Shown one piece after another: positions 22,682 through 61,408 of a DNA stretch of 64,000 nucleotides. This DNA comes from a virus. Both the position numbers and the translations under genes were made by a program. The stretch covers positions 120,954-184,953 of IMG/VR virus record IMGVR_UViG_3300032893_000001, one strand, 5' to 3'. The notes beneath the pieces are model-generated. The model was given only the letters and a program-made list of their open reading frames with translations, had not been told where the DNA came from and made no database searches. The stretch's first letter is position 1. The number at the start of each line of letters is the position of its first letter.

Positions 22682-23562
22682 TGGACGGTGATGGCGAGCG
22701 GGACGCCTTGAATCCCAGGATCGGGGTAGCGCACGATGCTCGTGTTGAAGCGCACCGCTCGCAGATTCGTCGTACCTGGCTTGAATCCACGCAGCGTAAG
22801 CGTTGTCGCCGATGGAATGACGGCTGCGATCGTGGGATCGTCCGTCGACCACTGGACGTCCCCTCCTGCGACGCCGGCGAGGATCTCTCCGTCAGTAGCA
22901 ACCACGGTCGGTGTGGTCACGAAGTCGACGCCGACTTGAATCGTGAAGGGTCCCACCGGATCGAACGTCACGGCGCCGACGACCGGGAAGAGCAGGTCGG
23001 GCAGATTGGCGTTGAGTGCGTCGGGTACGGAGATGACGCGTTGCACGTCCTCGAAGCCTTGGATCGTAACGAGGTACTGACCGTTGCGGATGAGGGGAAC
23101 CTGCAAGTACCCGTGCTCGTCCGTTCGTTCGATCACGCGTTCAGTGAGAACTCCAGCGCCATCGAGCAGCAACGGGTTGAACTGCGCGATGATGTGGCAG
23201 TCGAGATTCTGCGCAGGTCCTCCGGCGACGGTGCGGAAGAAGCCGTAGCACATGCAGAGGCGTGGATCTGTCGACGTCGGCGCTTGGAAGGGCTCCCCGA
23301 CAACAGTGAATGCGTTCGTCGCAGGCGCCTCGAGCACCTGGATGAACTGCGGGTTCTTGATGTTCACCTGCTGCTTGTAGAAGCGCACCTGAAAGGTCGT
23401 GTCGGACGGCAACAAGAACGCGGCGAGCCCATTCGCATCCGTGGTCTGCTGTCCGAAGACCTGCTTGCCGTCTTGGCTGTAGACCTTGACCACGACGCCC
23501 GAGATGGGTGCTGCGAACGGTGTGTTGTCCACAAGGTAGAAATCTACGGACTCGACGCTCAT
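22678..23562 (-). CDS. virion protein with carboxypeptidase-regulatory-like and Ig-like domains
   Basis: PISGVVVKV...TTDANG, TDEHG, VQWSTDDPTIAAV...G.KPGTT. Confidence 0.7.
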   Translation of the reverse strand: MSVESVDFYLVDNTPFAAPISGVVVKVYSQDGKQVFGQQTTDANGLAAFLLPSDTTFQVRFYKQQVNIKNPQFIQVLEAPATNAFTVVGEPFQAPTSTDPRLCMCYGFFRTVAGGPAQNLDCHIIAQFNPLLLDGAGVLTERVIERTDEHGYLQVPLIRNGQYLVTIQGFEDVQRVISVPDALNANLPDLLFPVVGAVTFDPVGPFTIQVGVDFVTTPTVVATDGEILAGVAGGDVQWSTDDPTIAAVIPSATTLTLRGFKPGTTNLRAVRFNTSIVRYPDPGIQGVPLAITVQ

Positions 23563-23798
23563 GACATGCCTCTCGCAGTACGAAGAACGATTCGATCGCC
23601 AGGCTTGGGGATGTAGCTGAGACGAAGAACGACAGAGCTGCCGTCAAGCGTACAGCGCGAGCGCGATCGAAGCCCGACCAACCGCACATCTCGCAGGTAC
23701 TTCGCGAGGTCCTTTCCAGGAACATGGGCCAGCCGGTGAAAGGCGAAGGACTGCCCGTCCGGCTGCCTGTTGGGATAGAAGATGAAGACGTCGCTCAC
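23559..23798 (-). CDS. hypothetical protein
   Basis: 79 aa, ATGA overlaps both sides. Confidence 0.6.
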   Translation of the reverse strand: MSDVFIFYPNRQPDGQSFAFHRLAHVPGKDLAKYLRDVRLVGLRSRSRCTLDGSSVVLRLSYIPKPGDRIVLRTARGMS

Positions 23799-24799
23799 AG
23801 TGATCGTCTCACCGCGAAGTCGATGTTCGGAACCTGCACGACGAAGACATCGTCGCTACCGACGGAGGGGTCGAGCAGATTGAAGGACGTGATCGTCGGG
23901 TCCGTCGGAACGGTCAAGTCTCTCGCGAGCTGCGTTCCTGCAACGGACACGGTCACCTGCGCACCACGGACCAGCAGGAACTCTGCATGACCGTCCGCAT
24001 CCGTGACTACGCGCGCATCCGTCGACGTCATCACACGTCCGTTGATTACGTTACCCTGGAACTTGGAGTAGACGGTCACCTCCCTGTTCTGCACGGCGCG
24101 GCCTTGCACGTCGACGAGGTCGACTGTTCCAAGAACGAGGGAAGAGGGATCGATGCTCCCACCGGTGGTGAGTGTGAACGGCAACGAGAAGTCGCTGACC
24201 GTGTTGTCGATGTCACTCGAGAAGCGTGTCTTGTAGAAGTAGCCCGAACCGCTGTGCCAATCGACGAAGGGGTAGAGCTCCTGCTCGGGGCGAAGAACGA
24301 TGCGAGCGTCTTTGCCGTAGTTCGCCCAAGCGGGGTCCGTCGTCGGAAGTCCGAGCAGCGCGGCAGCATCGGTGGCGAGCACGCGCAGGATGGCCTTGTT
24401 GCCAGCCTCGACGGACTGTACGACGAGCCGCCCATCCATCGTGACGAAGCTGGTCAGCATCCCACGGCTCTGTGCCACGATCTGCGAGGCCGCTTGTGAC
24501 CGAGTGATCGGATTCGAACCGGTGAACGTGACGTCGATATGCGTCGTCTCGTCGATGAGAAAAGAGGCCGTCATGCCGACGACAAAGGCACTCGGACCTG
24601 AAGGAGGGCTAGAAGGAGGGTCACCGACTACGTCGGCGGGCACTCGAGCACCGAGCCACGTAGGAGCAGTGAGCTCCACGTACGGGCCATCGGCACCCGA
24701 GGTGCTCCGCCAGACCTGAAGACGATCGAAGAGCCCGGCCCAGTCCGCCTGAACGGCCCGAAGCTGTAGCTGAACGGCCTGACCTACGATCGTCGTCAT
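23795..24799 (-). CDS. putative virion structural protein
   Basis: 334 aa beta-rich, VTDADGHAEF motif. Confidence 0.65.
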   Translation of the reverse strand: MTTIVGQAVQLQLRAVQADWAGLFDRLQVWRSTSGADGPYVELTAPTWLGARVPADVVGDPPSSPPSGPSAFVVGMTASFLIDETTHIDVTFTGSNPITRSQAASQIVAQSRGMLTSFVTMDGRLVVQSVEAGNKAILRVLATDAAALLGLPTTDPAWANYGKDARIVLRPEQELYPFVDWHSGSGYFYKTRFSSDIDNTVSDFSLPFTLTTGGSIDPSSLVLGTVDLVDVQGRAVQNREVTVYSKFQGNVINGRVMTSTDARVVTDADGHAEFLLVRGAQVTVSVAGTQLARDLTVPTDPTITSFNLLDPSVGSDDVFVVQVPNIDFAVRRSL

Positions 24800-24800
24800 T

Positions 24801-25112
24801 TCAGATCACCTCCTCGACCATACCATCACGACGGAAACGGACCTTGTCCGGCTGCACGCCGAGGCGCGCGGCGACCAGACCGCGAAGCTCGAAGATCTCT
24901 TTCTGGATCTTCTCCTCTTCGCTCTGAATCGCGTCGGCGTCTTTCTTCATGCGCTCCTTGCGAAGCATGAGGTTCTCGGCGCGGAGCGAAACGTTCTCCA
25001 CGCGAAGACGTTCCATCTCCGTCATCGCACCCACGGTGCGCACGTTCGTCGGAGCGGCCGTCTCGACCTTCTCCGGAACAGGAGCCACGCCGTTCTGCTT
25101 GATCTCTTCCAT
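24801..25112 (-). CDS. coiled-coil hypothetical protein
   Basis: 103 aa. Confidence 0.7.
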   Translation of the reverse strand: MEEIKQNGVAPVPEKVETAAPTNVRTVGAMTEMERLRVENVSLRAENLMLRKERMKKDADAIQSEEEKIQKEIFELRGLVAARLGVQPDKVRFRRDGMVEEVI

Positions 25113-25115
25113 GAA

Positions 25116-25328
25116 TCACCCTGCGAGAAAGTTGTCGATCTCGGTGACGGCAAGAGCCGTCACGGCTTGCTGCTGTGCATCGATCAGTTGGCCAAGCCCA
25201 CGCCCTTGTAGCATGCGCGTGAGTTGTGTGACGCGGTCGTTCAACTCCTTCTGTCGCTGCTGCGACCACTGCTGCGTGAGCTGTACGAGTTGGTCGAGGC
25301 GTTGATCTCGCTCTGCTTGCGAAGCCAT
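25116..25328 (-). CDS. hypothetical protein (possibly leaderless)
   Basis: 70 aa; TAGACT 7 nt before ATG. Confidence 0.65.
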   Translation of the reverse strand: MASQAERDQRLDQLVQLTQQWSQQRQKELNDRVTQLTRMLQGRGLGQLIDAQQQAVTALAVTEIDNFLAG

Positions 25329-25343
25329 CGCGAGAAGTCTACC

Positions 25344-25895
25344 TCAACGACGGTACGAAGGAAGCTCCCATGATTCGCGCGGCTGGAACCCCGCGAGTTT
25401 CAGCGAGTCTCGAACCCGACGCAGTTTCCTCGTTTGCTCGGCTCGAATGCATGAGTAGATACGTTCGATTCGTTGCAGTGGCATCCGATGAAAGGGCTCC
25501 GGATAGTCGTCGATGTACTCCCGCTCCTTGATCCGCTCCGATCTTCTTTTGTACGCGTCATTGAAAAAGAGTCCGGCGGCGACCTCGTCGATGCCTGCGT
25601 TGTGAAGAGAGCGTAGCTCGAATGTTCGACGTGCTTTGACCTTCACGAAGTCTCCGGCGTGGTATGACCAATCGTTCGAGACCTTTCGAAGAAGCAGCTT
25701 TGCAAAGAGGTAGCACCCGCGCTCGTCCAAGTTACGCATGTACCCCTCTTGCAACAGGACCTGCGGCGAAACGCAGGAATGGCTCAAGAACCGAACGCGA
25801 CCTCTTTCAGAAACGAAGATCTCGTGCTGTGCCCGCGCGCATTTGACTCGAATGACACGCTCCTCTTTAGGAACTTCTCGATAGCGTCGCTGCAT
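25344..25895 (-). CDS. hypothetical protein
   Basis: 183 aa, GGAGG RBS. Confidence 0.65.
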   Translation of the reverse strand: MQRRYREVPKEERVIRVKCARAQHEIFVSERGRVRFLSHSCVSPQVLLQEGYMRNLDERGCYLFAKLLLRKVSNDWSYHAGDFVKVKARRTFELRSLHNAGIDEVAAGLFFNDAYKRRSERIKEREYIDDYPEPFHRMPLQRIERIYSCIRAEQTRKLRRVRDSLKLAGFQPRESWELPSYRR

Positions 25896-25903
25896 CTGCC
25901 CTC

Positions 25904-25936
25904 CAAAAGAAAAAGGCCCGGCCGAGGCCGAGCCTT
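25904..25936 (-). terminator. intrinsic terminator after sigma gene
   Basis: AAGGCTCGGC/GCCGGGCCTT stem followed by T-rich tract. Confidence 0.7.
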
Positions 25937-25957
25937 GAAGTCTTCCTCTGACGCAGC

Positions 25958-26704
25958 TCAGAGGTACTGCTTGGTCTTCTCTATGATGCTCGACTTGAGC
26001 CGGCTCACCTGAGAGGCGTTCTTACCGATCTTCTTGGCGATGGCCGAAGTCGAAACCACCCGCTTACTCGTGTCGGGGTGGTACACGAGGTCGAAGACCT
26101 GCTTTTCTTCGGGCGTGAGCACGCTCGGAAGAAGGGACAGAACTTCTTGCTCTCTCGATCCGAAACGAGGCATCGGGTCACTCTCGAGTGCAGAGCTCGG
26201 GATGTCTTTGCGAATCGACTTCTGAATCTGTACTACTTTGCGCACGGGGATGCCTACGTACTCGGCGATTTCCTGTGCGGTCGGTGCTCGCCCAAGGTCG
26301 TCCGTCAACGCACCGTGCGCTCGCTGCAAGTTGCCGATCTGGTACGCCGGACTCTCGGGGATGTACGCGCGGTTCTGGTACTTGACCATGTACCGCTTCG
26401 CCTTCTGAATGCGGTGCTGCACGTGCGTGTTGAGCGCAGCGCCTCTCTGCGGGTTGTACGTCTGGAAGGCTTGGATGACGTGGCCGGTGATCTCCGCCTC
26501 CATCGCACTCGGCGTGATGAGCGGAGGAGTCCACTCGCGGACCTTGCTGTTGATCAGCGGCTGGTATGCGTCGAGCAAGGGCTCGAGATGCTCAGGCTTG
26601 CGCCCGCTCTCATTCCACTTGCTCCAGAGATCAAGATCTCGAGCTGCGCGAACTGCTGCCGTCTTCTTCTTCTCTTCGAGCAGCTCGTCAATCGGGTTGG
26701 ACAC
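25958..26704 (-). CDS. RNA polymerase sigma factor (sigma-70 family, group 3 FliA/SigF-like)
   Basis: region 2 (LLDAYQPLI...AFQTYNPQRGAALNTHV), region 3 (LGRAPTAQEIAEYVGI), region 4 HTH (LTPEEKQV...AIAKKIGKNASQVSRL). Confidence 0.88.
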   Translation of the reverse strand: MSNPIDELLEEKKKTAAVRAARDLDLWSKWNESGRKPEHLEPLLDAYQPLINSKVREWTPPLITPSAMEAEITGHVIQAFQTYNPQRGAALNTHVQHRIQKAKRYMVKYQNRAYIPESPAYQIGNLQRAHGALTDDLGRAPTAQEIAEYVGIPVRKVVQIQKSIRKDIPSSALESDPMPRFGSREQEVLSLLPSVLTPEEKQVFDLVYHPDTSKRVVSTSAIAKKIGKNASQVSRLKSSIIEKTKQYL

Positions 26705-26722
26705 AAGAACCTCCTTCGGGCC

Positions 26723-26751
26723 TCTTATCCCGTCCCGACTTCCGTTGTTGC
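26723..26751 (-). promoter_or_regulatory. promoter GCAA-N19-ATAAGA upstream of sigma gene
   Basis: tcttat 26723-26728, ttgc 26748-26751. Confidence 0.8.
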
Positions 26752-27761
26752 TACGCGCGGCCAGCGACGCTGCGAACCTTCTCGAGCAAGGTCTGTGCGT
26801 GCGTCACGTAGTGCCCGCGGCGACCGCCCGAGAAGTTCTGCTCGATCGTAGCCTTCGCTGCGTCGGATGCAGGCCCCATGTTCGTGAATATGCGATGCAG
26901 CAGGTCGTGGTTGTCCGCGACGTTGATCTGCTCGGCGCCGTCGGTGAAGACCTCGTACGCGTCCTTGCGATTGCCGATCCCCGGCTTGCCGTTGAAGGGG
27001 TCCTGTCCCCAGTGGTACCCCTCGGTCGGAACACCCTTCTGCTCGCCGGCGCCCTGCTGGCTGTGCTCGGTCCCCTTCTGCGGGGTCTCGACGTTCTGCT
27101 CGAGCGAACCCTTGGTCTCGATGTCCGCCTTCTCGGCAGCGAGCTTCATGCTGAGCTTCATCGCTGCGAACGGGTTGCTCTTGGCGGCGCGCGCGCCTTC
27201 CATGAGCGCCTGAAAGCCTTCCTCGCCGTACAGCTTCGGCTTCGGAAGGGCCTTGGCGATCGTCGGAGTAGCTTTGGCTGCTGCTCGAGCAGCCGCCGGG
27301 AGCGGCGGAGGAGTGCCTGCGATCTTCTCGTAGGCGGCCTTCATGCGTTCGCTTGCTCTCTTGGTCACGAAACTGCCTCCCATCGGCCGCCCAAGGGGCG
27401 CTTTCTTCATCACGTTGCCTGCCCTCGTGGCGGTCTCCACCGCAGCTCGAGGAAAGATCTCCGGCGTGCCGGGAATGGGCGTCGTCAGAACGCGCTTCAC
27501 GCTCTCCGCCGCGTCTCCAAGCCACCCAGACTCCTTCAGCTTGGGCGTCTTCAGACCGCCAGGGTTGGCGGCCTTCACGTCGTCCTTCGGCGTGTCGTAC
27601 TTGGCCTTCGCCGTCTGCTTGCCCTTTGCAGTACCATACCCCTTCGGGGTCTTGCCGAGCGCATGCGACTGCTGCGTCGCAACCGCGAACGCCGTCGACT
27701 TCTTCATGTCGGGGTTCTTGGCGAGCAGATGCTCAGCGCGCTCGTGAATCCACTCGGGCAT
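26751..27761 (-). CDS. putative internal virion protein
   Basis: K/A-rich 336 aa with several K-x-[AS] sites (LKESG, TKRAS, AYEKIAG). Confidence 0.6.
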   Translation of the reverse strand: MPEWIHERAEHLLAKNPDMKKSTAFAVATQQSHALGKTPKGYGTAKGKQTAKAKYDTPKDDVKAANPGGLKTPKLKESGWLGDAAESVKRVLTTPIPGTPEIFPRAAVETATRAGNVMKKAPLGRPMGGSFVTKRASERMKAAYEKIAGTPPPLPAAARAAAKATPTIAKALPKPKLYGEEGFQALMEGARAAKSNPFAAMKLSMKLAAEKADIETKGSLEQNVETPQKGTEHSQQGAGEQKGVPTEGYHWGQDPFNGKPGIGNRKDAYEVFTDGAEQINVADNHDLLHRIFTNMGPASDAAKATIEQNFSGGRRGHYVTHAQTLLEKVRSVAGRA

Positions 27762-27763
27762 GG

Positions 27764-28564
27764 CTAGATGATTCCCTTCTTCGCCCCTGACGCGGGGAGA
27801 CCGTAGCCTTGGGGCTTAGCGATGTCGGCGATGCTTGGCCCGCCGGGAGCAGTCAGCTTGGGCTGTCCTACCTTGCGAGCAGCCGTGAGGCCAGTCTTCG
27901 GAGAAGCTGGCGTCGTGGGCATGAGAGACGCCGCTTGCTTCTTGCGCACGACGGGTGCCTCGAGAGTCGAGTCGTCGCCGGCGAGCCCGCTTGCCAGAAT
28001 CCAGGGTCCGTAGCTGAGCGGGCCGCTGAACTGCGACGTGACGAAGTCTCCAGGAGCATACGAGACGTACGCGTCGCTCCCCTTCTCCTTCATCGGAACA
28101 GGGCCTTTGCCCAGGCTCTTGCCGTCCTTGTCGACCTCGATGAGAGCGTCGCCTTCGAGCTTCAATCGAGCCGCAGTCTTGCCCTGCCCTTGCTCGTACT
28201 CCTGCATGAACTGGCGCAGCGTCGCCATCTCCGCCGCACGGTCCATGTGGTACCGAAGAAGAGGAGCCACGCCGCCCATCACGGCGCCGGCGGCGGCGGA
28301 CCCAAGTCCTGATCGCAAGCGCCCGAATCGAACCGGCTTGCCACCAACCTCGACAGGCTTGAACGGAAGCTGCCCACGCACGACGTCGCCGATCGCACTC
28401 GCTGCGGGGCCTGCGATCGCACCAAGCGCTCCATACCGAAGCGCCTGACCGATCGTGGGCTTGCTTGCCTCGAGCTGCTGCACACGCTCGTAGGACGCGC
28501 GCGCCTGCTCCGGGGTGATCGCCCCGAGCTTCTCGAGCTCGTCGATGGTGGCGCGAAGGTTCAT
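27764..28564 (-). CDS. putative internal virion protein
   Basis: starts MNLRATIDELEKLGA; Gly/Ala hydrophobic segments. Confidence 0.65.
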   Translation of the reverse strand: MNLRATIDELEKLGAITPEQARASYERVQQLEASKPTIGQALRYGALGAIAGPAASAIGDVVRGQLPFKPVEVGGKPVRFGRLRSGLGSAAAGAVMGGVAPLLRYHMDRAAEMATLRQFMQEYEQGQGKTAARLKLEGDALIEVDKDGKSLGKGPVPMKEKGSDAYVSYAPGDFVTSQFSGPLSYGPWILASGLAGDDSTLEAPVVRKKQAASLMPTTPASPKTGLTAARKVGQPKLTAPGGPSIADIAKPQGYGLPASGAKKGII

Positions 28565-28881
28565 TTCTTGTGGGCCAGAAGCTGCGCGGCGACCGGCGCC
28601 GCAAGGGTACCAAGTCCCCCGAGCTCCAAGCCCGCATGCGCCATCTCCCACTTGTCGGGGTGCTCTTTGCGCGCCTGGTGCTGCAACGTGTCGATCGGCG
28701 GAAGGGCCAAGATGCCGAGGCCGCCGAGATCGTAGGCGTGGCCGTGCTCGGCCAAGTGACGACCGATGGCACTTTCGGGACCGAGAGCTCGGCCGAGCGC
28801 GCCGGCAGCGCTCAGGCCCTCTCCCGCCTGCTTGATCTTCATGAGCTCGTCGACGAATGACTTGTAGACGACGGCGTTCAT
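28561..28881 (-). CDS. putative internal virion protein
   Basis: starts MNAVVYKSFVDELMKIKQAG. Confidence 0.65.
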   Translation of the reverse strand: MNAVVYKSFVDELMKIKQAGEGLSAAGALGRALGPESAIGRHLAEHGHAYDLGGLGILALPPIDTLQHQARKEHPDKWEMAHAGLELGGLGTLAAPVAAQLLAHKK

Positions 28882-29546
28882 CCCATCCTCCCCGGCATCG
28901 CCATCGGCGGTGTCATGTTCATGCCCATTCCGCCCGGCGGGCCACCGACCATGCCAGGAAGAGCGGACGCGCTCGCAGGGGCCATCCCCATCGTGCCGTC
29001 CTTCTCCTTGCTCTTGCCTGCCCGACGACCCGCCTCGAACAACAGCGCACCGGAAGCGGCACCGCCGGCTCCGTGCGCGACTCTCTTGGAGTCGCCGAGA
29101 AGAAGGCCATGCGCGATGTCCTGCGCCGGCTCCATGCGATTGTGCAAGAACCCATGCACCGCGTGCGCACCGTGCTCGAGCGCCTTGTGCCCCACACTCT
29201 TCGCCTTATCTGCAACCGAAGCTGCCTTTGCGCGAAGAGCCGGCACGTCGCTCTTGCGGGCGAGGTCGGGGTACTTCTTGGCGACGTCCTTGTAGACCTC
29301 GGCCTTCTGCTTCGGCGTGCCGTGCTGCTCGACACGGGAGAGGGCGTTGGCTGCATGACGGCGATCATGGATGGGGTAGGCTGCCTCCCCCGTCGCCGAC
29401 TGCGCTGGCGTGAGAGCGAAGTTCTTCGCCTTGATCTTCTCGCGCGATGCCTCGGTGAGCTCCTTGGCAATCTTGCCCATGCCGGTGCCGGCTTGGATCT
29501 GCTTCAGCTCGTCGAAGAAGGAGAACATCGAGATGGGCATGGACAT
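28878..29546 (-). CDS. putative internal virion protein with DUF6582-like domain
   Basis: FFDELKQIQAG leader; R..I...NFA...YPIHD..HA.NAL.RV.Q motif (family name from memory). Confidence 0.6.
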   Translation of the reverse strand: MSMPISMFSFFDELKQIQAGTGMGKIAKELTEASREKIKAKNFALTPAQSATGEAAYPIHDRRHAANALSRVEQHGTPKQKAEVYKDVAKKYPDLARKSDVPALRAKAASVADKAKSVGHKALEHGAHAVHGFLHNRMEPAQDIAHGLLLGDSKRVAHGAGGAASGALLFEAGRRAGKSKEKDGTMGMAPASASALPGMVGGPPGGMGMNMTPPMAMPGRMG

Positions 29547-29554
29547 GATGGACC

Positions 29555-29956
29555 TCAGAAGTTGCCGTGTTCTTCGGGCGTGTTGACTGCTGCCGGCGCC
29601 AGAGAGTAGCGCGCGAAGGCAGGGATCTTGGTGGACATGGCCTCGCGTCCGTCTTCTCGAGACGGAACGATGTCGTTCGGACCAGGCTTGGCTGCGGCAG
29701 GAGTTCCCGTCGGGCCAGATGCACCCGTCGCCGACTGGTAGTCGGAGTTCGAGTACGGCACCACGTTGCCGATCGAGCCATCCGCCTGCTTCGTGTACTT
29801 GTAGAGCGTGCCGTCCTTCTCCTTGCGGAGCATCGTCGACACACGCATCGGGCGCCGCTTCGCACGCGACTTGCCGTGACGTAGCTGCTCTCGAGCAGCA
29901 GCGATCTTCTCGAGTTCGTCGAGAAAAGCTCTCTCCATGACCGCGGCGTAGTCCAT
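29555..29956 (-). CDS. putative internal virion protein
   Basis: MDYAAVMERAFLDELEKIAAA. Confidence 0.65.
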   Translation of the reverse strand: MDYAAVMERAFLDELEKIAAAREQLRHGKSRAKRRPMRVSTMLRKEKDGTLYKYTKQADGSIGNVVPYSNSDYQSATGASGPTGTPAAAKPGPNDIVPSREDGREAMSTKIPAFARYSLAPAAVNTPEEHGNF

Positions 29957-30002
29957 CGGGGCTCCATACGGTTCTACCACCGGGGGACAGGAAGCGGAAG
30001 TT

Positions 30003-33000
30003 TCAGCCCAGGATCGCGCGGGCGAACTGGAGATCGCTGACGAAGTCGCCGACGGCCTGAAAACGCCGTCCGCGGATGTCGAGACGTTGCCGCGCGATGG
30101 CCGTGCGGTTGACCCCGATCACGCTTTCAATGTCGGGCGTAACGAGCCCGAACAGATCGGCGTAGTTGCCGAACGCTCTTGAGTGGAACCCCTCGACGCC
30201 GCGGATGACCTGCGTGCCATCCGCGGTGAACTGAAGGTCCGACGTTCCGAACATGTCGAGCATCGTGGCAACCGGCCGCCAGGTGTACGAACGAACGAAC
30301 TCGTCGACGTCCAGACCGGACTGCTTGATGTACGAGTACGTCAAGACCAAGAAGTCCGTCGCCTGCTCGATCGAAGCTCCTTCTTGCAGTGTGAGCAACG
30401 CAGAGATGTCGGCTCGTGGGTCGTTGCCGCCCTTGGAGTTGCCCGCATCGCCAAGCTGCTCGAGATCGTCGATGTTGATGAGCGTCTTCGACGAGCCGTC
30501 GGGCTGGTTGACGTTGGTCTGGTCGGTGATCGAGCCGATGCCGAAGTAGTAGTTGTAGATCTCCCCGATCTTGCGCGGGTGCCAGACGTCGGCGTACCAA
30601 CCCGGACGGATGTACTCCTCGGGCGGCATCTTCACGTACTCCTGTCGATACTGCGGAACACGCTCCGTGATGCGGTACCCCTTGAAGACGACGACCTTCG
30701 CGCTGTCCCCCACGTAATCGGCAACCGCGCTGCTCACCGCGCCCGCTGCGACAGGAACGTCGACGGGTGCACTCGAGTCGAGGTTGCCTCCAGTGATGCT
30801 CGCGCCGAGGAAGACGGGAAGCTTCTGCGCGGTGTCCGGTGTGGAACCAGGCAGCGGCGGAAGAAGACCTGCGTCTTCGACACGAGAGATGATCCCAAAG
30901 TTCGGACCGACGCCGCCGATGGGCGGCTTGGTCAGCGCCGCCACGAGAGTCTGCCTGTTGGCATCTGCTCCAGTGCGCTTGTTCACCATCTGGTCGTCAA
31001 GCATCGACGGACCAAGGAGCTCCGTGGTCTCGTCGTGTTGCCGAGGGTAGCTGCATTCGATGGTCGTCACGCCCTGCCGTTGATCGACTGCGTGCGTGAC
31101 CTGCGTGAACGCACCGAGGTAGTGCGACCCTAGATACTTGGTCAGCTCCGGCACTTTCTGCTGGTACTGCGAGAGCAACGTACGAACGGTCGAGACGTGC
31201 TCGAGATCGACGTACTTGTCGAGGATGAGTCCGGGGAACCCCACGGCGATCCACGGGTTGAACTTTCCGCGAATGCTCATCTTGCGCGCGGTGAAGCGGT
31301 ACTTGAAGTACAAGAAGTTCGTCGAGCGCTGCGCGAGGCTGACCTTGGCCAAGGTGCTGTCGACTGTTCCCGAACGCACGGCGAGGATGTTCATCTCGCC
31401 CATCTTCTCGAAGACAGGCAGGATGCCCGTGAAGAGCTCGTGATCGAGGATGTCGTTCTCGAAGAGAAGCTGATCGGACTTCTTCTGCCCTTTGACCGTC
31501 TTCACCTTCGGGGCGACGTAGAACGAGTCCATCAGGTCGTCCTCGCCAACAAACTCTTCGTTCGTCTTCAGAAGCAGGCGTGTCGGCTCCTGCGTGAACA
31601 CGCGTGAGTAGGTGATCGTGTCGTAGTTCTCGGGGAACAGAACATTGCAGCGAGGAGGCGGTCCAAACCAGATGTCCGGCCGGATGATGTGGCTGTTGAG
31701 ACGAGCGGGCGTCGCCTTATCTCGACTGACCGTGTTGGTCTCGAGCGCCGCGACCTTCCCGAGCGCCGTCGATGCCTCGTCGAGCTTGCTCGTGATCTCG
31801 TCGACGTTCTTGCCAGAACGACCGGGAGCCCAGTTCTTCTTCAGCTTCGTGATCGCCACGCCGACAGCAGTCGCTGCCGATGAGAAGAGAGGAACCGCGG
31901 CTGGCAGGTTCTTCTGGTTGCTCACCGTCGCAGCTTGCTGAAGAAGCTTGCGCAGACGGTCCATCTGCACCGAGAGGAAGTCGACGGGGTTCTTGTTGAG
32001 AAGAGTCGATTCTTGCCCAGGTGTCGTGCTTTGAGGCTGCGTACCGGTGATCGACGTCTTGATCGTGGTGATCTGCGACTGCCCATCGATCGCCGTCTGG
32101 TAGAGCGGGAAGAGTGCAGGTACGACGCGGATGCTCTTGCGTCCGAGACCGTTCGTCGAACCTCCCGTTCCTGGCACGTAGCGAGGGCACGGCTGCCCGT
32201 ACGACTCGTGGAAAACGGTGCTCATCAGCGAGTTCATCACGTCGCGGATGCTGACCTGCTCCCCGAGGTTTCCAAGAACGCGACCGAAGAGAGCATCCCA
32301 CCCGTCGGAGTTGAGAAGACGAGACGCCGTCGGGTCCTGCGGGTAGACCGTGATCATCTGCGAGATGTGCAGACGAAGCTCGGCCAACGAGAAGAAGATG
32401 TTCTGCCCCTGAACCGTCTTGCCGTAGTAGTACGTCCCGCCAACGGACTCGAGGATGCGAACGATACCACCGAGCAGGCCCGGCAGGTTCGGGTACTGAA
32501 TCGAGCTCTGGTGAAGCAGCGAGGTGATCGCCTCACCGGGGGACGTCAAAAAGTCCGTGAGCAAGTCCGTCGAACCACCGCTGAAGACAGCCTTGACGCC
32601 TGGCCCGAAGATGTCGGTGTTGCTGAACTGGTACGCGTAGTCCCAGTAGTTCGACAAGTCGACGCACTGAAAAACGAGGGAGCGCTGCGTCTGGTTCTTC
32701 GTCCACTGAAACCCGATGATCTCTCCACAGAAGAGCAACTTGTATCGATCGTTCGCCCGATCTCGAGCGAACTCGTCGTCACTCTCTTGATCGACGTCCT
32801 GCCCCGTACGGTCGTTGCGACGTGACTGCGCTTGCTCGTACGTGGTCGGATTTTGCTTCGAGTTGTTCGTCTGCGTGGCGTTCGAAACGAGGGGGCTGTC
32901 GAGCTCGTAGAAGTCGTAGAAGAACAAGTGCACGAGCGTTCGCGGGAGCAGCTTGGTGCCCATCGCAGACGGTGGCACTTGGATCACGCATTGCATCGGG

Positions 33001-33095
33001 CCGTTCGGAACGGCAACCACCTGCGCGGCGATGACAGGAACTTCGATGCCCTCGAGAAAAAGTCGAAGGCGAAGCTTGTGACCTCTACCTGCCAT
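30003..33095 (-). CDS. baseplate hub-like tail protein
   Basis: 1030 aa downstream of tape measure; RLFLEGIEVP, LFCGEI, IRGKFNP.I..GFP, QVTH.V hub-like pattern. Confidence 0.6.
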   Translation of the reverse strand: MAGRGHKLRLRLFLEGIEVPVIAAQVVAVPNGPMQCVIQVPPSAMGTKLLPRTLVHLFFYDFYELDSPLVSNATQTNNSKQNPTTYEQAQSRRNDRTGQDVDQESDDEFARDRANDRYKLLFCGEIIGFQWTKNQTQRSLVFQCVDLSNYWDYAYQFSNTDIFGPGVKAVFSGGSTDLLTDFLTSPGEAITSLLHQSSIQYPNLPGLLGGIVRILESVGGTYYYGKTVQGQNIFFSLAELRLHISQMITVYPQDPTASRLLNSDGWDALFGRVLGNLGEQVSIRDVMNSLMSTVFHESYGQPCPRYVPGTGGSTNGLGRKSIRVVPALFPLYQTAIDGQSQITTIKTSITGTQPQSTTPGQESTLLNKNPVDFLSVQMDRLRKLLQQAATVSNQKNLPAAVPLFSSAATAVGVAITKLKKNWAPGRSGKNVDEITSKLDEASTALGKVAALETNTVSRDKATPARLNSHIIRPDIWFGPPPRCNVLFPENYDTITYSRVFTQEPTRLLLKTNEEFVGEDDLMDSFYVAPKVKTVKGQKKSDQLLFENDILDHELFTGILPVFEKMGEMNILAVRSGTVDSTLAKVSLAQRSTNFLYFKYRFTARKMSIRGKFNPWIAVGFPGLILDKYVDLEHVSTVRTLLSQYQQKVPELTKYLGSHYLGAFTQVTHAVDQRQGVTTIECSYPRQHDETTELLGPSMLDDQMVNKRTGADANRQTLVAALTKPPIGGVGPNFGIISRVEDAGLLPPLPGSTPDTAQKLPVFLGASITGGNLDSSAPVDVPVAAGAVSSAVADYVGDSAKVVVFKGYRITERVPQYRQEYVKMPPEEYIRPGWYADVWHPRKIGEIYNYYFGIGSITDQTNVNQPDGSSKTLINIDDLEQLGDAGNSKGGNDPRADISALLTLQEGASIEQATDFLVLTYSYIKQSGLDVDEFVRSYTWRPVATMLDMFGTSDLQFTADGTQVIRGVEGFHSRAFGNYADLFGLVTPDIESVIGVNRTAIARQRLDIRGRRFQAVGDFVSDLQFARAILG

Positions 33096-33101
33096 GCTTC
33101 C

Positions 33102-35228
33102 TCAGATCTGCGACAGCGGTGTATTCGGGCACGGCACTCCGTAAGTCCCCGGCAGCGACTGCATTCCAAACACGCCGTCGCCCATCACGCCAGGCCCCAT
33201 TGAGGACACAGCAGCCATGTTCGCTCCGCCGCCGAACACGGTGCTCTGCGCACCCGCGACCGCGCCGTAGCCGCCGTAGTTGGTCGAGCCCGCAGGCACG
33301 CCCATCGGAGCGAACCCTTGGGTGCTCTGAAGAGTTCCATCGGGTCCGATGCCTGCCGTGTAGCGGTACACCGAGCTCGTGTTCGGCTGCCCAGGCGCCG
33401 TGTACCCAAGGCCGTACGGAGAACCTGTCGGCAGCCCGTACGGGTTGAAGGTCGACTGCTGGTTGAGCGAGTTGCCGTACTGCGCGTACGCCGGGTTGCC
33501 GTAACTCGCCGCGCCGTAGCCCCCCAAGCCGCCACCGACACCCGGACCGAACGAGCCACCCATCGCGCCGCCGTACGACCCGCCCACGCCGGCGGTGTAC
33601 CCGTAGCTGCGGCTGAAGGCGCCTCGGAAACCGAAGCCCACACCCGCGAGCCCGCCGCCTTGAAGAGAGAGACCCTGATTGGTCAGAATCAGCCCCGCCA
33701 CGCCGCTAGGCGCCGCGCCAAGCCCAGACTGTGCTCCGAACGGGAGCTGGCCTGCGTACGCGCCCGCCACCGCCTGAGCGCCTGCGCCGTTCTGAAAGGG
33801 GATGCCGACGGTACCACCGACACCCACGCCGACACCGAACCCCGCCCCCACGCCAGCGGAGGCACCCGCACCGATTGCACCGCCCGTGAATCCAGCACCT
33901 GCGCCAAGAGGGCGTCCGTACGGACCGTACGACTGCAAGGACGAGCCTGGGGTGTAGGGAACGAGGCCGAAGCCGTAGTAGTTGCCCGGCCCCATCATCG
34001 CGCCGTTGCGGCACGACTGGTTGTTGACGGTGTTGAGAGGAGACGCCGGCGGACTGTTGACGGGGCCGCCGGGCGTGAGCGTTGGATCGTCGACACCAGG
34101 CGCGGTCGAGCCTGGGGTGTACGCCATGTTGGGCAGAACATCTCCGAAGCCACCGTTGACGTACTCGTCCTTGTTGTCGGCGACCTTCGAACGAATCGCG
34201 TTGACGTGCTGCGGAGGAGGCTGCGGTCCCGACAGCGCCGTCTGCGCATCGTTCAAGAACTGCTGCACGTTGAAGAGGAAGCCTTCGATGTCCTGCGACG
34301 GGAACGCAGTGCTGGTCATGCCGCGTTGAAGAACGCTCGTCAGATACGCAGTGCTGAAAAAGCTTCCAGATGCGAAGAGCGCTTGGTTGGCAGCGATCTG
34401 CTGCTCTCTCGTGAGAATCGAGTTGAGCGTCTGCTGCTTTTGAATCTGCTGATCGAGCTGAACTTGTCCGCTCGAGCGAAGCGCTTGAAGAAAGGCTTCT
34501 TGTGCTTGCTGCTCGGGGCTGACCTGATCGGGGTACTTCGGTGTGAGCTGATCCCACGCGTCCATGCTCGTCAGGTCCGCCACGCCGGGAGGAGGCACGG
34601 CACCCGAACGAATCGGGTAGAACGGATCGCCGATGAAGGAGATGTTCGCGTAGTTCGTCACGAACATGCGGAACTGAAGCTGGAGCATCATCGGCATGTC
34701 CGCCGACTCTTGCGTCTGTGCGTTGAGGATGTAACCCTCGATGATCGTGTCCTCGTAGAAGAGGTAGCAGCGCGCTCCCATCTCCACGAGTTTCGTCCCG
34801 CGCAGGTACTTGTCGTAGTTCTCCCACCACTCCGAGCGCCAGTTGAAGTCGAAGCTCTTGAGCAGCACCGCTTGAACATCGATGAAGCGGGGAGCTTCAC
34901 CAAAGAAGAAGATGTAGGGCTCGCCGAACGTCTCCACGATCTGCTGCTTCTCCATGCGTGCTTCGCTCACGCTCTGAAGAAGGAAGTTCGCGTAGTTCTC
35001 GTTCTGACCGGTGCCGTCCATCGCACCCGAATCGAAGAGCGGGATGTTGCTACCGTCCGCACGCACTACGCGGATGATCGCGTAGGTGTCGTCCTTGACC
35101 TCGAGACCACGCGTAGGACGTCGAACGCTGGGATTCGATCCGTTCTTGCGCGCGCTCTTGCCGTTCGCCACTTGCTGGGAGAACGTCCTCTGGAAGTCGT
35201 CGATCTCGAGGGAAACGAACACCGACAT
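33102..35228 (-). CDS. tail/baseplate protein with Gly/Tyr-rich low-complexity C-terminus
   Basis: N-terminal FLLQSVSEARMEKQQIVETFG domain; GAG/GYG-rich tail. Confidence 0.6.
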   Translation of the reverse strand: MSVFVSLEIDDFQRTFSQQVANGKSARKNGSNPSVRRPTRGLEVKDDTYAIIRVVRADGSNIPLFDSGAMDGTGQNENYANFLLQSVSEARMEKQQIVETFGEPYIFFFGEAPRFIDVQAVLLKSFDFNWRSEWWENYDKYLRGTKLVEMGARCYLFYEDTIIEGYILNAQTQESADMPMMLQLQFRMFVTNYANISFIGDPFYPIRSGAVPPPGVADLTSMDAWDQLTPKYPDQVSPEQQAQEAFLQALRSSGQVQLDQQIQKQQTLNSILTREQQIAANQALFASGSFFSTAYLTSVLQRGMTSTAFPSQDIEGFLFNVQQFLNDAQTALSGPQPPPQHVNAIRSKVADNKDEYVNGGFGDVLPNMAYTPGSTAPGVDDPTLTPGGPVNSPPASPLNTVNNQSCRNGAMMGPGNYYGFGLVPYTPGSSLQSYGPYGRPLGAGAGFTGGAIGAGASAGVGAGFGVGVGVGGTVGIPFQNGAGAQAVAGAYAGQLPFGAQSGLGAAPSGVAGLILTNQGLSLQGGGLAGVGFGFRGAFSRSYGYTAGVGGSYGGAMGGSFGPGVGGGLGGYGAASYGNPAYAQYGNSLNQQSTFNPYGLPTGSPYGLGYTAPGQPNTSSVYRYTAGIGPDGTLQSTQGFAPMGVPAGSTNYGGYGAVAGAQSTVFGGGANMAAVSSMGPGVMGDGVFGMQSLPGTYGVPCPNTPLSQI

Positions 35229-35237
35229 GGCTTGTCC

Positions 35238-35546
35238 TCAGACGGCGAGGTTGGTCTTGATGAGGAAGTCGCGCACCGAGCGGGGCGGAGGCACTCCACG
35301 ATACTCCTCCACGCGCTTGATGGAGAAGGCAGCCGCTTTGACAGCCAGAAGGAACGGGTCCTCGGGCACGATCTTGTCACGGTACGTGAACGTGTAGAGC
35401 TTGCCGTTCATCTTGATGGTGACCGGCGTCTCGTTTCGTCCAGGCCCGCACCCCGGAGGCTGCACGAAGATGCTCGTCGGCAGCTTGGTCTGCATGACCT
35501 GCGTCGAGATCAAGGCGAAGGGATCGAAGGAGGCCGGAATGGTCAT
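35238..35546 (-). CDS. hypothetical tail-region protein
   Basis: 102 aa coupled to tape measure. Confidence 0.65.
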   Translation of the reverse strand: MTIPASFDPFALISTQVMQTKLPTSIFVQPPGCGPGRNETPVTIKMNGKLYTFTYRDKIVPEDPFLLAVKAAAFSIKRVEEYRGVPPPRSVRDFLIKTNLAV

Positions 35547-38500
35547 GATTGCGGCGCTTTCTGCGTTCCTTGCTCGGTGTCTTTCGAATCGTTCCCGGTG
35601 TTGTTGGCGACCTGCTGCGTGAAACGAGCGGTGCTCTTGATGGCGGTACCGACCTCGGGATCGCCCATCGTACCGGCGATTCGCGCGAGGTGCTCCTCGA
35701 TCTTAGCAAGCAACGGATCTTGTTCTCGTTGCGACGCCTCCGTCTTCTCTTTGGCTGCTTTCTGTCGAGCTGCTTGCACCTCGCGTCCGGCAGCGCCGCG
35801 GCCCGCCGCAAGGTCCTGGATAGCCTCTGCGTTTCCGGAGGCGAGCATGCTCGAGATGTCCTTGCGCGCCTCTTCGGAGAGATCGCCGACGTTCACGCCG
35901 CTCTTGGCCAGCAACTGATTCGCTGCCAAGGACGGGTCCTTCTTGGCGAGCTCCTGGAACTTCCGCAGGTCTCCACCTCGGAACTGCACTCCTAGGGAGC
36001 TTCCGATCGCGTAGGCGCTTCCGCCCTTCTTGAGCTTCGCCTCGATCTTCGCGCGCTCTGCTGCATCCGAGCGGAGCTCCGAAGCTTGATCGAACTGCCC
36101 CTGCTTCTCGAGTTCGGATGCCAGCTTCCGCTTCTGAGCGACGGACAGGCCACGAATCTGAGACTCGTACGAGCCTTGCTCTGTCGCGAGTTCCTTGAGG
36201 AGCTCGGAATCCGTGGTTTCTCCAACCATGGATTGTCGGTCGATGCTCGAAAGCTTGCCCTGCATCGCCTTGATGATGCCCCCAGCGTCCTTGCCGAGTG
36301 CCGAAGTGATCGCTGCCTCGGTGCCCGCCGACAAGACCAATTTTCCAGACTTGTCCGTGGTCGCGTACCCGCTGAGCGTGAGCGAACGCGCTTGCTGCTG
36401 CGCTCCGCGACTCATCTCGCGAGCGAGAATACGCGTCTTCTCTTCTTGCTGGCCCTTGGCGACGGCTGAGAGCTGCGACGGAGAGCTCTTCACGGCGTCC
36501 ACGGACATACCGCGTCGGCGGGCGATCGCTGCCCACTCTTCTTCTGTCGGCTCTCGCTTCTCCTTCTGAGCCTTCTCGTACAGGTCGAAGGAGTCGGCAG
36601 CCGCTGCCATCTGCTTCAAAGCCTCTCGCTGCTCGGGCGGGAGATCTTCTTTCAGCAACATGTCTTCGATCTTGTCTCGAGACGCCTGGTCGCCTGAGTA
36701 GATGCCGGAGATCAGCGACTTGCCTTCTTGCGAGTTCAAGTACTCGCCCTTGGCTGCTGCCGCACGTCGATCGGTGACGGTCTTCCAGTAGCCCCCGGTG
36801 AGTCCCGTGAGAACCTTGTCGACAACCGACATCCCTTCGGTCTGCTTGTCGATCTTGCGAGCTCCGAGCATACCGAGAAGTCCCTCTGCAAATTCGGGAC
36901 GTCCCCTCTTGGCCGCGGGCATCGCCATCGCCTGCCCATAGGCCAAGTTCTTCTCGTCCATCGTGGCAAAACCACCGCTCAAAGAAGAGAGGGTACTCGG
37001 CGGACCCTTCTCTCCCATCATCTGTCGAGCGATCTTCTGCCGCTCCTCCGGCGTATTGGCCGACCGAATGTTCATCAGTGCGGCCGCGGCGTCCTTGTCA
37101 CCAGCGTTCGCGCGCTGCGCGAGCACCTGGGTCAATTGATCGAGCTTCGCGTTGCCGTGCACGTCCTTGAGAGAAGGATCTCGAAGAGCAGCTTGCGTTG
37201 CGTAGTACGCCCCCTGCGCCATGTTCGTACGTCTTTGGAGATCGTCCGCTCCGCCGACACCACGGAACAACCCGCCGTATCCAGCAGCCTGCATTCGATC
37301 CATGTCCGAGTCGCCGAACGCGAGCTTCGACGCTCCTGAGCTAAACAACCCAGTGAGACCGATTTCGGCTGCACGGCCTACGCCCTCCCTGCGTCCGAAG
37401 AAGTTGTTGACGCCGGCTTGCGCAGACGTCCGTCCAGCGAGAGGAGAAGTACCCGTTCCGTACTTGCTTGCGATCCCCACTCCGGCGCGCGCGCCGCCAC
37501 CGAGCTGCTTCTGAAGACCAGAGCTCCCGGCGCCACGAATCGCATCCGAGTAGGCGTCCATGATCTGCTGGTCGTACTCTTCGACCGCGACGCCCGTCAG
37601 CTTGTTGATGTACGTCTCCACCATCGAGGAGAGGTCGGTGTAGAACTGAGCTCCGGCGCGTTGCAGACTGTTCTGCACCTTGTCTCTGGCTTCTTCGAAT
37701 CGTCGTTTGACGCCTTCGATGCCCTGCGTTCGGCTGAGGGTGGCCTGCCTGCGCTGGAACTCGTCTGCGCGCGCCGATGACCGCTGCTGCTCCCGCAGCC
37801 GGGGCATATCCTTCGCCATCTTCACGGCGTCCTCGAGCTCGTCCATCCCCATTCCGAGCTGCCGGGAGGCGAACATCATCGAGCGATCGTCCATTTGATC
37901 GATGTCGATGCCCTTGCTCGAAGCCCACTGCATCAGCGCCATCGTCGGGAGCATTCCCCCGAACTGCTGAAGAGCTGCACCGCGAAGGCGGCCTTCGTTG
38001 CGGAGGAACCCGGCCTTTCCGATGGAGGACAAGTTCCCACGAGCGCGGCCGCGCGTGGCCCCGATGTTCATGTCACCGGACATCCACTGTTCGACGGATG
38101 CTTGATCGAGCTGCCCATTCTGTCCCGCGACGGACGCCAAGAACATCCGTCCGCGTCCCGAACGCAGAAAACCACCAGCCTGCTCGAGCTGCCGTGTCGC
38201 GAGTGCCTGTCGGCCCTCTGCGCCGGTGAGCCCCGTGGCGTTGTAGATGTCTTCTTCCGACAGCACTCCCGCCTGCATGGCGGTTCCGATCATCCCGGCT
38301 GTGCGGATTCCTGCGAACGCGCCCTGCGCTCCACGGCCGCCGATCGCACGGGAGACCTGAGCTCCGATGTTCGCCGCCGCGGTGAGCTCGCTCGTGGCCA
38401 TGTTGCCGGCCTGAGAGAACTGGCGGATCTCGGTGGCCAATCGACGCTGGTCTCCAGAGTTGAAGATGCCCGATCCCCGCATCGCGACGACGAACTCCTG

Positions 38501-39163
38501 CGCCGCCTGCATGCTGGTTCCCATCTCCTTCGCTACGACCTTCAGTGTATCGACCATCTCGCGGAAGCGCTGAGTGAACTGGCTGACGTCGCGTACGCCG
38601 CCGCCCATTCCCATCCGCCCCATGTTCGACGCGAGCCCTTGGAGCTCTCGAATCCCGAGCATCTCCCCACCAGGCCCCTGCTGCCCCGCCATGTTGAAGA
38701 GCTGCTGGTTGATCCCCCCAAGCTGCCCCGTCGAGAAGCCCTGCCCGTACGGCGTCATGAAGTTGAAGGCGCCGCGCATCTGCTGGTTGAACGCCTGCTG
38801 CTGCTGCGCGCCCGTCCACATCTGGTTCGCCGCGTAGCTGGCGACTGCCATCGGAACCGCCACCCCTGCGGCAACACCAAGACCCGCAACGCCGGCTCCC
38901 ATCAGCCCTGCGCCCCCCATGTAGGCACCCATCCCCGCCTTGAGGCCGAGGCTCATCGGATCGAGCCCGAGCATTCCGATGCCGAGGCTCGCCAAAGGAG
39001 CTCCGACGCTCGCGGCTGCGTTCATCAGCCCGCCCGTAACGCGCTCTGCCTGAACGGGCGGCCCACCCATCCCACCGACCATGCCCGAGAACTGCATGTT
39101 CGAGGCGTACATCGACTGAAACTGCCCAGAAGCGGCAGCAATCTCAGCGGAGTTCAGCGGCAT
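35543..39163 (-). CDS. tape measure protein
   Basis: 1206 aa, helical A/G/Q/M-rich, upstream of baseplate genes. Confidence 0.7.
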   Translation of the reverse strand: MPLNSAEIAAASGQFQSMYASNMQFSGMVGGMGGPPVQAERVTGGLMNAAASVGAPLASLGIGMLGLDPMSLGLKAGMGAYMGGAGLMGAGVAGLGVAAGVAVPMAVASYAANQMWTGAQQQQAFNQQMRGAFNFMTPYGQGFSTGQLGGINQQLFNMAGQQGPGGEMLGIRELQGLASNMGRMGMGGGVRDVSQFTQRFREMVDTLKVVAKEMGTSMQAAQEFVVAMRGSGIFNSGDQRRLATEIRQFSQAGNMATSELTAAANIGAQVSRAIGGRGAQGAFAGIRTAGMIGTAMQAGVLSEEDIYNATGLTGAEGRQALATRQLEQAGGFLRSGRGRMFLASVAGQNGQLDQASVEQWMSGDMNIGATRGRARGNLSSIGKAGFLRNEGRLRGAALQQFGGMLPTMALMQWASSKGIDIDQMDDRSMMFASRQLGMGMDELEDAVKMAKDMPRLREQQRSSARADEFQRRQATLSRTQGIEGVKRRFEEARDKVQNSLQRAGAQFYTDLSSMVETYINKLTGVAVEEYDQQIMDAYSDAIRGAGSSGLQKQLGGGARAGVGIASKYGTGTSPLAGRTSAQAGVNNFFGRREGVGRAAEIGLTGLFSSGASKLAFGDSDMDRMQAAGYGGLFRGVGGADDLQRRTNMAQGAYYATQAALRDPSLKDVHGNAKLDQLTQVLAQRANAGDKDAAAALMNIRSANTPEERQKIARQMMGEKGPPSTLSSLSGGFATMDEKNLAYGQAMAMPAAKRGRPEFAEGLLGMLGARKIDKQTEGMSVVDKVLTGLTGGYWKTVTDRRAAAAKGEYLNSQEGKSLISGIYSGDQASRDKIEDMLLKEDLPPEQREALKQMAAAADSFDLYEKAQKEKREPTEEEWAAIARRRGMSVDAVKSSPSQLSAVAKGQQEEKTRILAREMSRGAQQQARSLTLSGYATTDKSGKLVLSAGTEAAITSALGKDAGGIIKAMQGKLSSIDRQSMVGETTDSELLKELATEQGSYESQIRGLSVAQKRKLASELEKQGQFDQASELRSDAAERAKIEAKLKKGGSAYAIGSSLGVQFRGGDLRKFQELAKKDPSLAANQLLAKSGVNVGDLSEEARKDISSMLASGNAEAIQDLAAGRGAAGREVQAARQKAAKEKTEASQREQDPLLAKIEEHLARIAGTMGDPEVGTAIKSTARFTQQVANNTGNDSKDTEQGTQKAPQS

Positions 39164-39418: not shown

Positions 39419-39424
39419 TCGAGT

Positions 39425-60613: not shown

Positions 60614-61408
60614 TTATCGAATGAAAGGCGTCCCGAGTTGGGGCTGCCCATACTGGTTGATGCCGTGCGCGAGTTGCGGAGCGCCGTAGGTGGTCTCGCC
60701 CCAGTCCGCTGGACCCTGCTCGCGGGAGAGGTAGCCGAGCACCGGCTTCGAGGCCAGGTAGGCGGTGCCGCCAAGAAGACCCGCACCTACGAGACCACCA
60801 GCGAGAGCGCCACGACCAACAGTCTTAGCTCCAGCAACGGCCTTCTGAGCAACGGGCGCAGCAACGTCGCGTGCCTTCTGAAGACCACCAACGATCTTCT
60901 GTCCCATCGGAGACGCGGCCGCGGCTTGCGCTGCGCGCACGGGAGCCTGCAACGCGTGCCCAACCTGCTGAAAGGGCTTCGCCAGGTTGGGAGACTTCGA
61001 AAGAAGTCCCGCCATCCCGCTCATGATTCCTGCCTCTTTCTCCATCTGCGCCAGCTCCGCACCGAGAGCGGAGGCTACGCGGACCATACCCGCGTCCATC
61101 CCGATCGGCACTGGGTACGGCAGGTACCCGAGGTCCGCACCCGGCGGTGCGAACACTGGCGCTTGCGCATGCTGCGCATTACCGATCGTGGAGGCCATCT
61201 GCTGAAGCTGCAAAGCGCGGAAGGCATCGTTCATGGCGATCGCCTGCTGCCTCTGCTCGCTCATCTCACCACCGACGTGCTGCGCCATACGCATGGCGAG
61301 CATCGCGAAGAGCAAACGCTGCGCGAACGGCGAGATCCCGGCTTCCTTCTCTTGGAAGTCGACATCGGTGCCGTAGTGGCGCATCAGCTCTTCGTTCGGA
61401 CGGGTCAT
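60614..61408 (-). CDS. putative internal virion protein
   Basis: DFQEKEAG and ELAQMEKEAG motifs, Gly/Ala hydrophobic C-terminal segment. Confidence 0.6.
   Translation of the reverse strand: MTRPNEELMRHYGTDVDFQEKEAGISPFAQRLLFAMLAMRMAQHVGGEMSEQRQQAIAMNDAFRALQLQQMASTIGNAQHAQAPVFAPPGADLGYLPYPVPIGMDAGMVRVASALGAELAQMEKEAGIMSGMAGLLSKSPNLAKPFQQVGHALQAPVRAAQAAAASPMGQKIVGGLQKARDVAAPVAQKAVAGAKTVGRGALAGGLVGAGLLGGTAYLASKPVLGYLSREQGPADWGETTYGAPQLAHGINQYGQPQLGTPFIR

Follow-up and report, generated by a model that had tools for sequence, protein, structure and literature searches.

A candidate virion-carried sigma factor–RNA polymerase holoenzyme and a K-x-A word of head proteins in a phage related to Salmonella phage Arash

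How virion multisubunit RNA polymerases find early promoters is an open question, and a locus in the IMG/VR virus record IMGVR_UViG_3300032893_000001 raises it in a compact form. Here a sigma-70-family gene closes a minus-strand operon of virion-type genes, behind a promoter-like element of its own. Is this sigma made late, packed into the head and injected together with a phage polymerase? We analysed a window of 64,000 nt, the last 64 kb of the 184,953-bp record, which was judged complete (G+C content 61%) and for which our own gene calls gave 236 genes; coordinates are those of the window unless marked as genome coordinates (Table 1). A sequence-only reading of the window had proposed that a leader shared by the operon proteins, DEL-x-K-x-A, is a capsid-loading and maturation signal, and that the phage loads its sigma factor into the head. 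The phage family examined here offers a compact candidate holoenzyme, composed of a fused beta-beta' polymerase and a clear sigma (no alpha gene was found), together with a predicted promoter and a cultured member, Arash.

The six open reading frames (ORFs) from 29956 to 25958, and the peptides quoted from them in the earlier reading, are all present on the minus strand. They form one run with intergenic gaps of -4 to 46 nt, and an intrinsic terminator lies directly behind sigma, so that sigma is the last gene of the operon, as had been proposed. Sigma is the single genome match to profile A1 and no second sigma was found in the genome. Pfam Sigma70_r3 (PF04539) and r4 (PF04545) scored above cut-off. 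Region 2 (PF04542) gave no Pfam match, yet the predicted model aligns with sigma subunits over 220-290 columns (predicted local distance difference test, pLDDT, 88.5; Foldseek match to sigma subunits, E 6e-9). By sequence comparison the phage groups with Arash and Vibrio phage D69, its head module being related to that of phage G. Among cultured phages, Salmonella phage Arash and Vibrio phages D69, D148 and D181 come closest, with identities of ~30% for capsid, sigma, polymerase and protease (sigma 31%, polymerase 31-32%). A single-sequence search of viral contigs for relatives gave no match; an alignment-based search gave 15 further loci.

Support for packaging comes from cultured phages. In particle proteomics of Arash, beta was the most detected protein, and beta' and the orthologous sigma, gp10, were also there, the latter with 24 unique peptides and 467 spectra (PMC10585845). 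Spectra per residue amount to 2.0 for sigma, 2.0 for beta' and 2.3 for beta, and sigma has the highest unique-peptide density among the 34 proteins compared. The second sigma-like gene of Arash, gp196 (L008:5657-6694; Sigma70_r2 E 6e-10), is not in the particle list. In Yersinia phage YerA41, gp019 is a late-expressed sigma encoded among structural genes and found in particles with polymerase subunits, and its authors suggest injection (PMC7354516). Sigma in particles thus has two earlier precedents, both reported without a test. They stand apart from the jumbo-phage polymerases, which according to reviews come without recognisable sigma homologs (PMC7598289, PMC13282480). The proposal that sigma is loaded into the head gains from the Arash data, and we consider it probable that this phage also carries a sigma-polymerase holoenzyme in its virion.

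The earlier reading overlooked the phage's own polymerase, a fused beta-beta' chain encoded outside the window. Its catalytic motif is intact at residue 1408, and the fused enzyme is present in 7/7 near-complete relatives, with one match per relative, single or intein-split. An alpha-subunit gene was searched for in the genome and not found. When sigma was modelled in complex with polymerase residues 1025-1300, the score was 0.70, and the best control reached 0.01; the score mark was reached by 58/80 solved pairs and 2/110 mismatched pairs. The runs agreed in at least 66% of contacts, with a partner pLDDT of at least 73. In the predicted complex, region 2 (residues 35-78) lies on the beta' clamp segment and the leader is outside the interface. 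The score may pass by likeness to solved holoenzymes, and binding to host core would be compatible with it; the phage's fused polymerase is nevertheless a more likely partner than host core.

A second line of evidence concerns the K-x-A word itself. In 18 minus-strand head-region genes it occurs 107 times, against 49.8 expected (p 1.5e-12), whereas tail, replication and early genes show no excess and the control words KA, K-x-x-A and R-x-A none either. The head-gene set had been delimited by position after the K-x-A counts were seen; because of this post hoc choice, the test was repeated in four other genomes with homology labels. Head genes again carried the excess (91 vs 41.5, 101 vs 40.3, 67 vs 28.0 and 95 vs 45.6 expected; p 1e-10 to 7e-16), and only head genes did. 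It was also seen in Arash gp220-225 and phage G gp19. K-x-A lies within the first 35 residues of 14/18 head proteins compared with 24/163 others, and 42% of head sites have Ser or Ala as the next residue. The K-x-A sites of a 1273-residue repeat protein (genome 63148-66969) were a repeat artefact and were excluded.

The head region also encodes a candidate prohead protease. Pfam, PHROG and PDB sequence searches gave it no name; the fold search alone did. In both fold searches the best match of its protease domain was T4 gp21 (Foldseek probability 0.91, E 0.04; VIA Z 7.9 and a root-mean-square deviation of 3.3 with 136 of 165 residues aligned), with herpes proteases next. The protein is 27% identical to phage G gp19, termed head maturation protease (PMC12484599). 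H117-H118 and S174, putative catalytic residues, are invariant in 62 close homologs. K-x-A sites flank the protease domain, K30 in 5/5 and K314 in 4/5 orthologs. By analogy with A-x-E cleavage by SPN3US gp245, K-x-A may be read as a cut site with cleavage after Ala, a reading to which we incline slightly. If so, K-x-A would be the specificity of the prohead protease and would let head-internal proteins be predicted in a large, mostly uncultured phage family. No K-x-A protease motif was described in the literature searched, although an earlier description in the 2020 phage G virion work is possible. Among the 1,665 homologs of the candidate protease, many (P0126, P0136, P0143 and others) carry inteins with homing endonucleases.

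In sigma, the word closes an acidic amphipathic N-terminal helix, and a cut there would fall after A16. K-x-A stands 13-15 residues ahead of the first conserved Trp in 56/75 sigma homologs (shuffled mean 8.4, maximum 21), a number that rises to 63 of 75 if Ser or Gly is allowed at the third place. It occurs in three registers with 12 different middle residues, and 15/15 further viral-contig loci have it. On the sigma tree its presence switches six times, 11 of the 19 exceptions forming one clade. A word that slides in register amid varying flanks has the behaviour expected of a short linear signal. The first residues of the Arash and Vibrio sigmas fall near the predicted start of the cut product; the leader, being absent from them, is dispensable for the sigma fold.

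Exact copies of the promoter-like element GCAA-N19-ATAAGA number 11 in the window, where 0.01 would be expected, and the element is spacer-specific. Its core stands ahead of 14/72 non-structural and 0/21 structural operon starts. It is retained in four relatives, there also before replication genes, and the core GGTATAAG ranks first among the words upstream of non-structural genes in Arash. Its occurrence in a Salmonella phage as well is what one would expect if the reader is phage-encoded, and the core co-occurs with the sigma family, a putative sigma-promoter pairing. The element lies directly before sigma here and in 7/18 related loci, and 304 nt upstream in Arash; in several loci the 3.5 kb ahead of sigma hold no promoter of this class, which favours the packaging of sigma. 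No sigma-70 consensus promoter was found in 22000-40000.

These observations suggest the following course of events. Late in infection, the operon 39163-25958 would make variable internal head proteins, with sigma last, and sigma would enter the prohead along with the fused polymerase. Cleavage after K-x-A by the prohead protease would process the proteins inside the head. In most of the family it would also remove the 16 leader residues of sigma, and what is left would resemble the leaderless sigma of Arash. Once injected, the holoenzyme would read the GCAA-N19-ATAAGA promoters of small non-structural and replication genes, as well as the sigma gene's own promoter, giving an early boost of sigma. 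On balance we favour this model as a whole: a late sigma that is packed along with the phage's polymerase, loses its leader at K-x-A and serves early promoters immediately. Neither such a fused polymerase-sigma holoenzyme nor the K-x-A code was found in the literature searched.

Several points weigh against it. The match scores of the protease are moderate, its fold score (Z) being below 8, and cleavage at K-x-A, in any member of the family, is an inference. The Arash preparation came from one sucrose gradient and held 116 proteins including ribonucleotide reductase and primase, and the authors allow for carry-over (PMC10585845). The sigma gene's own promoter gives a route to expression without packaging. 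The polymerase has neither an N-terminal K-x-A nor a K-x-A excess, which leaves its loading route unexplained; a polymerase leader was rejected, its K-x-A sites being internal. In the predicted sigma model a single long helix spans residues 4-32 and includes K14-A16, so that cutting there would require a protease to unwind it. The sigma orthologs of Arash and D69 have no leader, and an 11-member clade has no K-x-A in sigma while the neighbouring genes of one member keep theirs. For these last two reasons the leader is no loading requirement across the family; it helps or is a remnant.

The same facts bear on the alternatives. If acidic helix plus K-x-A were a portable capsid-targeting signal, like the T4 capsid-targeting sequence (CTS), it would itself load sigma into the head. 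This would agree with the recurrence of the leader at N-termini and within shuffled, fused proteins across many loci, with the early position of K-x-A in head proteins and with a sigma leader free of the predicted polymerase interface. The leaderless Arash sigma is in particles all the same, a clade lost K-x-A in sigma specifically, and the fit of sigma leaders to the DEL register is poor: in a ranking of the 236 proteins by a profile built from relatives' leaders this sigma comes 15th, and only 19% of the N-termini of sigma homologs score above the shuffled 95th percentile. Sigma shares with the operon leaders the idea of an acidic helix and K-x-A, not the exact register. We therefore hold the targeting account to be rather unlikely, and a required loading signal in the leader equally doubtful. 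The proposed capsid-loading and maturation signal thus fares unevenly: K-x-A marks head proteins in the proteome and in the relatives scanned, and a gp21-fold protease is encoded, while the leader is not a family-wide loader and sigma fits the leader profile loosely. A bolder variant would make sigma a pro-sigma, kept inactive and directed headward by its acidic helix when made late and activated by the prohead protease after K-x-A, so that only virion-matured holoenzyme may fire early promoters. If true, a capsid protease would perform in a phage what pro-sigma processing does in sporulation. Leaderless orthologs count against this variant, and sigma expressed early from its own promoter would carry the leader as well; we regard it as improbable. 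The milder case, an injected sigma-70 holoenzyme together with a K-x-A maturation code, seems to us slightly on the favourable side.

Alternatively, sigma could be an ordinary early or middle factor outside the virion, its detection in Arash being carry-over from an impure preparation. Host holoenzyme, or the virion polymerase alone, would then first read the sigma gene, and K-x-A would serve the late trimming or degradation of remaining sigma by the protease, or be a relic. The promoter and strong ribosome site directly upstream of sigma, and the promoter's place in relatives and Arash, speak for this. An Arash sigma level equal to that of the polymerase subunits, with the second sigma absent from the list, argues otherwise, as do the closing place of sigma in a virion operon, which Arash and these phages have in common, and a promoter that is not of sigma-70 consensus; we judge this account unlikely. 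Packaging without cleavage of the word would be conceivable if K-x-A were a helix-packing or scaffold-binding word of core proteins. Predicted helices hold many of the K-x-A sites, folded cores contain a conserved one in the portal and several in the polymerase, and gp223 and gp242 are among the K-x-A-rich Arash proteins with 100% coverage. That coverage looks inflated, 100% arising from 2 unique peptides; K-x-A is placed on either side of the protease domain and found again throughout scaffold-like proteins; and a free middle with a small next residue mirrors the A-x-E of SPN3US gp245 (PMC10052503). An uncleaved word therefore has little probability in our view.

The favoured model, in which packaged sigma is trimmed with other head proteins, works like head loading and maturation in T4 and phiKZ, while the phage is a member of neither system. 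T4 and phiKZ cut sites end in Glu. As with T4 gp21, phiKZ gp175 and SPN3US gp245, a protease of the gp21-fold clan goes with a three-residue motif spread over many head proteins, and as with T4 internal proteins a short N-terminal leader is common to unrelated proteins, more loosely for sigma. SPN3US gp245 cuts after A-x-E, with Ser favoured next, and removes propeptides of 20 and 24 residues (PMC10052503). Unlike in T4 and SPN3US, the shared word here ends in Ala and the T4 CTS sequence is absent; unlike the T4 gp23 or phiKZ type, the capsid is related to phage G gp27 (20%); and no sigma is among the known cargo of T4, phiKZ or SPN3US. Like the virion polymerases of phiKZ, AR9 and SPN3US, the enzyme is of multisubunit type with no alpha gene found, and it may be carried in the head for early transcription, its ortholog being the top protein of Arash particles. 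Those enzymes are split into five polypeptides, with a second non-virion enzyme beside them and no recognisable sigma (PMC7598289, PMC13282480), whereas here there is one fused chain, in one copy, with a clear sigma-70-family factor.

Arash and Vibrio phages D69, D148 and D181 have orthologous sigma, polymerase, capsid, portal and protease, the same gene order around sigma, K-x-A-rich head genes and the same promoter core; they differ in having neither a sigma leader nor a variable DEL-leader cluster before sigma, and the Arash polymerase is encoded by two genes. The Arash paper mentions no protease, motif or promoter (PMC10585845). YerA41 resembles the phage in its late sigma gene among structural genes and in the presence of sigma in particles with polymerase subunits; it is more distant (polymerase 25% over 46%), its polymerase genes are early, no leader or cleavage is described, and its gp019 gave no tblastn match to this sigma. 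Bacillus phage G has homologous gp14 portal, gp19 protease and gp27 capsid. K-x-A is abundant in its gp7, gp19 and gp21 (L009:6287-22468) and missing from its capsid protein, which may mean that the Donellivirus lineage also uses the code; no polymerase or sigma counterpart in phage G was among the tblastn matches listed.

The leaders of the operon proteins agree in part with the earlier description. DEL occurs within the first 17 residues of 5/6 operon genes compared with 4/230 others (Fisher p 1.3e-7, by a test chosen only after the motif had been seen); the strict form DEL-x-K-x-A occurs once, in 29555-29956. K-x-A totals in the five ORFs before sigma match composition (14 vs 13.9 expected), so that the signal there is one of position and conservation only, and their raw count was dropped as evidence. 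The 29555-29956 protein is the top match of the profile trained on relatives' leaders, and its site is kept in 4/4 orthologs. The 28878-29546 protein matches phrog_16160 (E 6e-7) and, as a lead only, viral clusters bearing DUF6582 in an Atlas search (score 0.86); its ortholog in locus L014 carries the exact DEL-x-K-x-A. The L013 ortholog of 28561-28881 retains K-x-A at 17. For 26751-27761, Pfam and PHROG searches gave no named family; its K63 site is kept in 4/5 orthologs, and of the internal motifs reported for it the peptides are present, KESG not being K-x-A. The motifs reported in 60614-61408 hold up, K124 being kept in 3/3 orthologs.

In relatives, the leader cluster lies between the same large virion gene and sigma, its modules shuffled and fused, with the helix-plus-K-x-A word at protein starts and internal junctions. 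The order of the large virion genes is kept in nearly all loci. The 708-residue protein matches Arash gp6 (E 1e-8) and the 1030-residue protein weakly matches Arash gp8 (E 0.002), both present in Arash particles (PMC10585845).

Table 1. Features of the sigma locus and of the head and polymerase genes (window coordinates unless marked genome)
Feature	Coordinates	Strand	Remarks
Sigma-70-family factor, 248 amino acids (aa)	25958..26704	-	GTG start, strong GGAGG; compact, group-3-like: regions 2, 3, 4
Sigma leader, 16 codons	26657..26704	-	acidic amphipathic helix, end K14-T15-A16 (codons 26665-26657)
Intrinsic terminator after sigma	25913..25936	-	10-bp stem and T run
GCAA-N19-ATAAGA promoter-like element	26723..26751	-	19 nt ahead of sigma start
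336-aa K/A-rich protein	26751..27761	-	no DEL leader; conserved 75-aa N-terminal domain, then K-x-A at K63
266-aa modular protein	27764..28564	-	ATG start; DEL-x-K-x-G leader; internal K-x-A at 129 and 209
106-aa protein	28561..28881	-	DEL leader and K-x-A at K17 (two residues later than strict motif)
222-aa protein	28878..29546	-	DEL leader, first K-x-A at K25, then small DUF6582-like domain
133-aa probable internal head protein	29555..29956	-	exact DEL-x-K-x-A leader, K17
Upstream operon part, three large virion-type genes (1030, 708, 1206 aa)	30003..39163	-	K-x-A not enriched
264-aa protein outside operon	60614..61408	-	K-x-A at K21 and K124
Candidate prohead protease	genome 15093-16832		T4 gp21 / assemblin-like fold, phage G gp19 homology
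Major capsid gene	genome 10923-12044		outside window
Fused beta-beta' RNA polymerase, 2128 aa, one chain	genome 27207-33593 (L002:5707-12093)	-	outside window

The terminase and portal genes also lie outside the window, as does the gene for an 844-aa head-region protein with 10 K-x-A sites (genome 6657-9191; L001:4657-7191, minus strand). A ferritin-like domain (Pfam E 9e-15) follows right behind a conserved K-x-A at K24 in this protein, a candidate packaged ferritin/Dps-like protein. The polymerase frames of several relatives are longer (2493-3259 aa), probably through inteins. Arash gp196 has no homolog in this phage, and its annotated start looks too early.

Around sigma, many relatives have non-structural genes, often with their own early-type promoter, inserted between leader cluster and sigma (L014, L016, L019, L020, L022, L026 and L028-L030, ~1.5-2 kb upstream of sigma). 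The sigma terminator and the virion gene that follows it enclose a 183-aa ORF (25344-25895), which falls below the coding threshold and has counterparts by size and place in L013, L077 and L078. A perfect promoter copy with a strong ribosome site at 21163-21191 is oriented towards a 1035-aa virion-type gene (17937-21044) at a distance of 119 nt, and a short ORF behind it may have been missed. The phage was detected in wetland metagenomes, with 3 good matching sequencing runs, 2 of them maybe the source; no RNA runs were among the listed sequencing runs with the phage. A second, sigma-70-like late-type element, G[GC]TAnnnT, stands at 11/21 structural and 5/72 other operon starts (for example 39163-39180); being defined on the sequences in which it was counted, it is a lead only, which suggests that late genes may be read by host polymerase.

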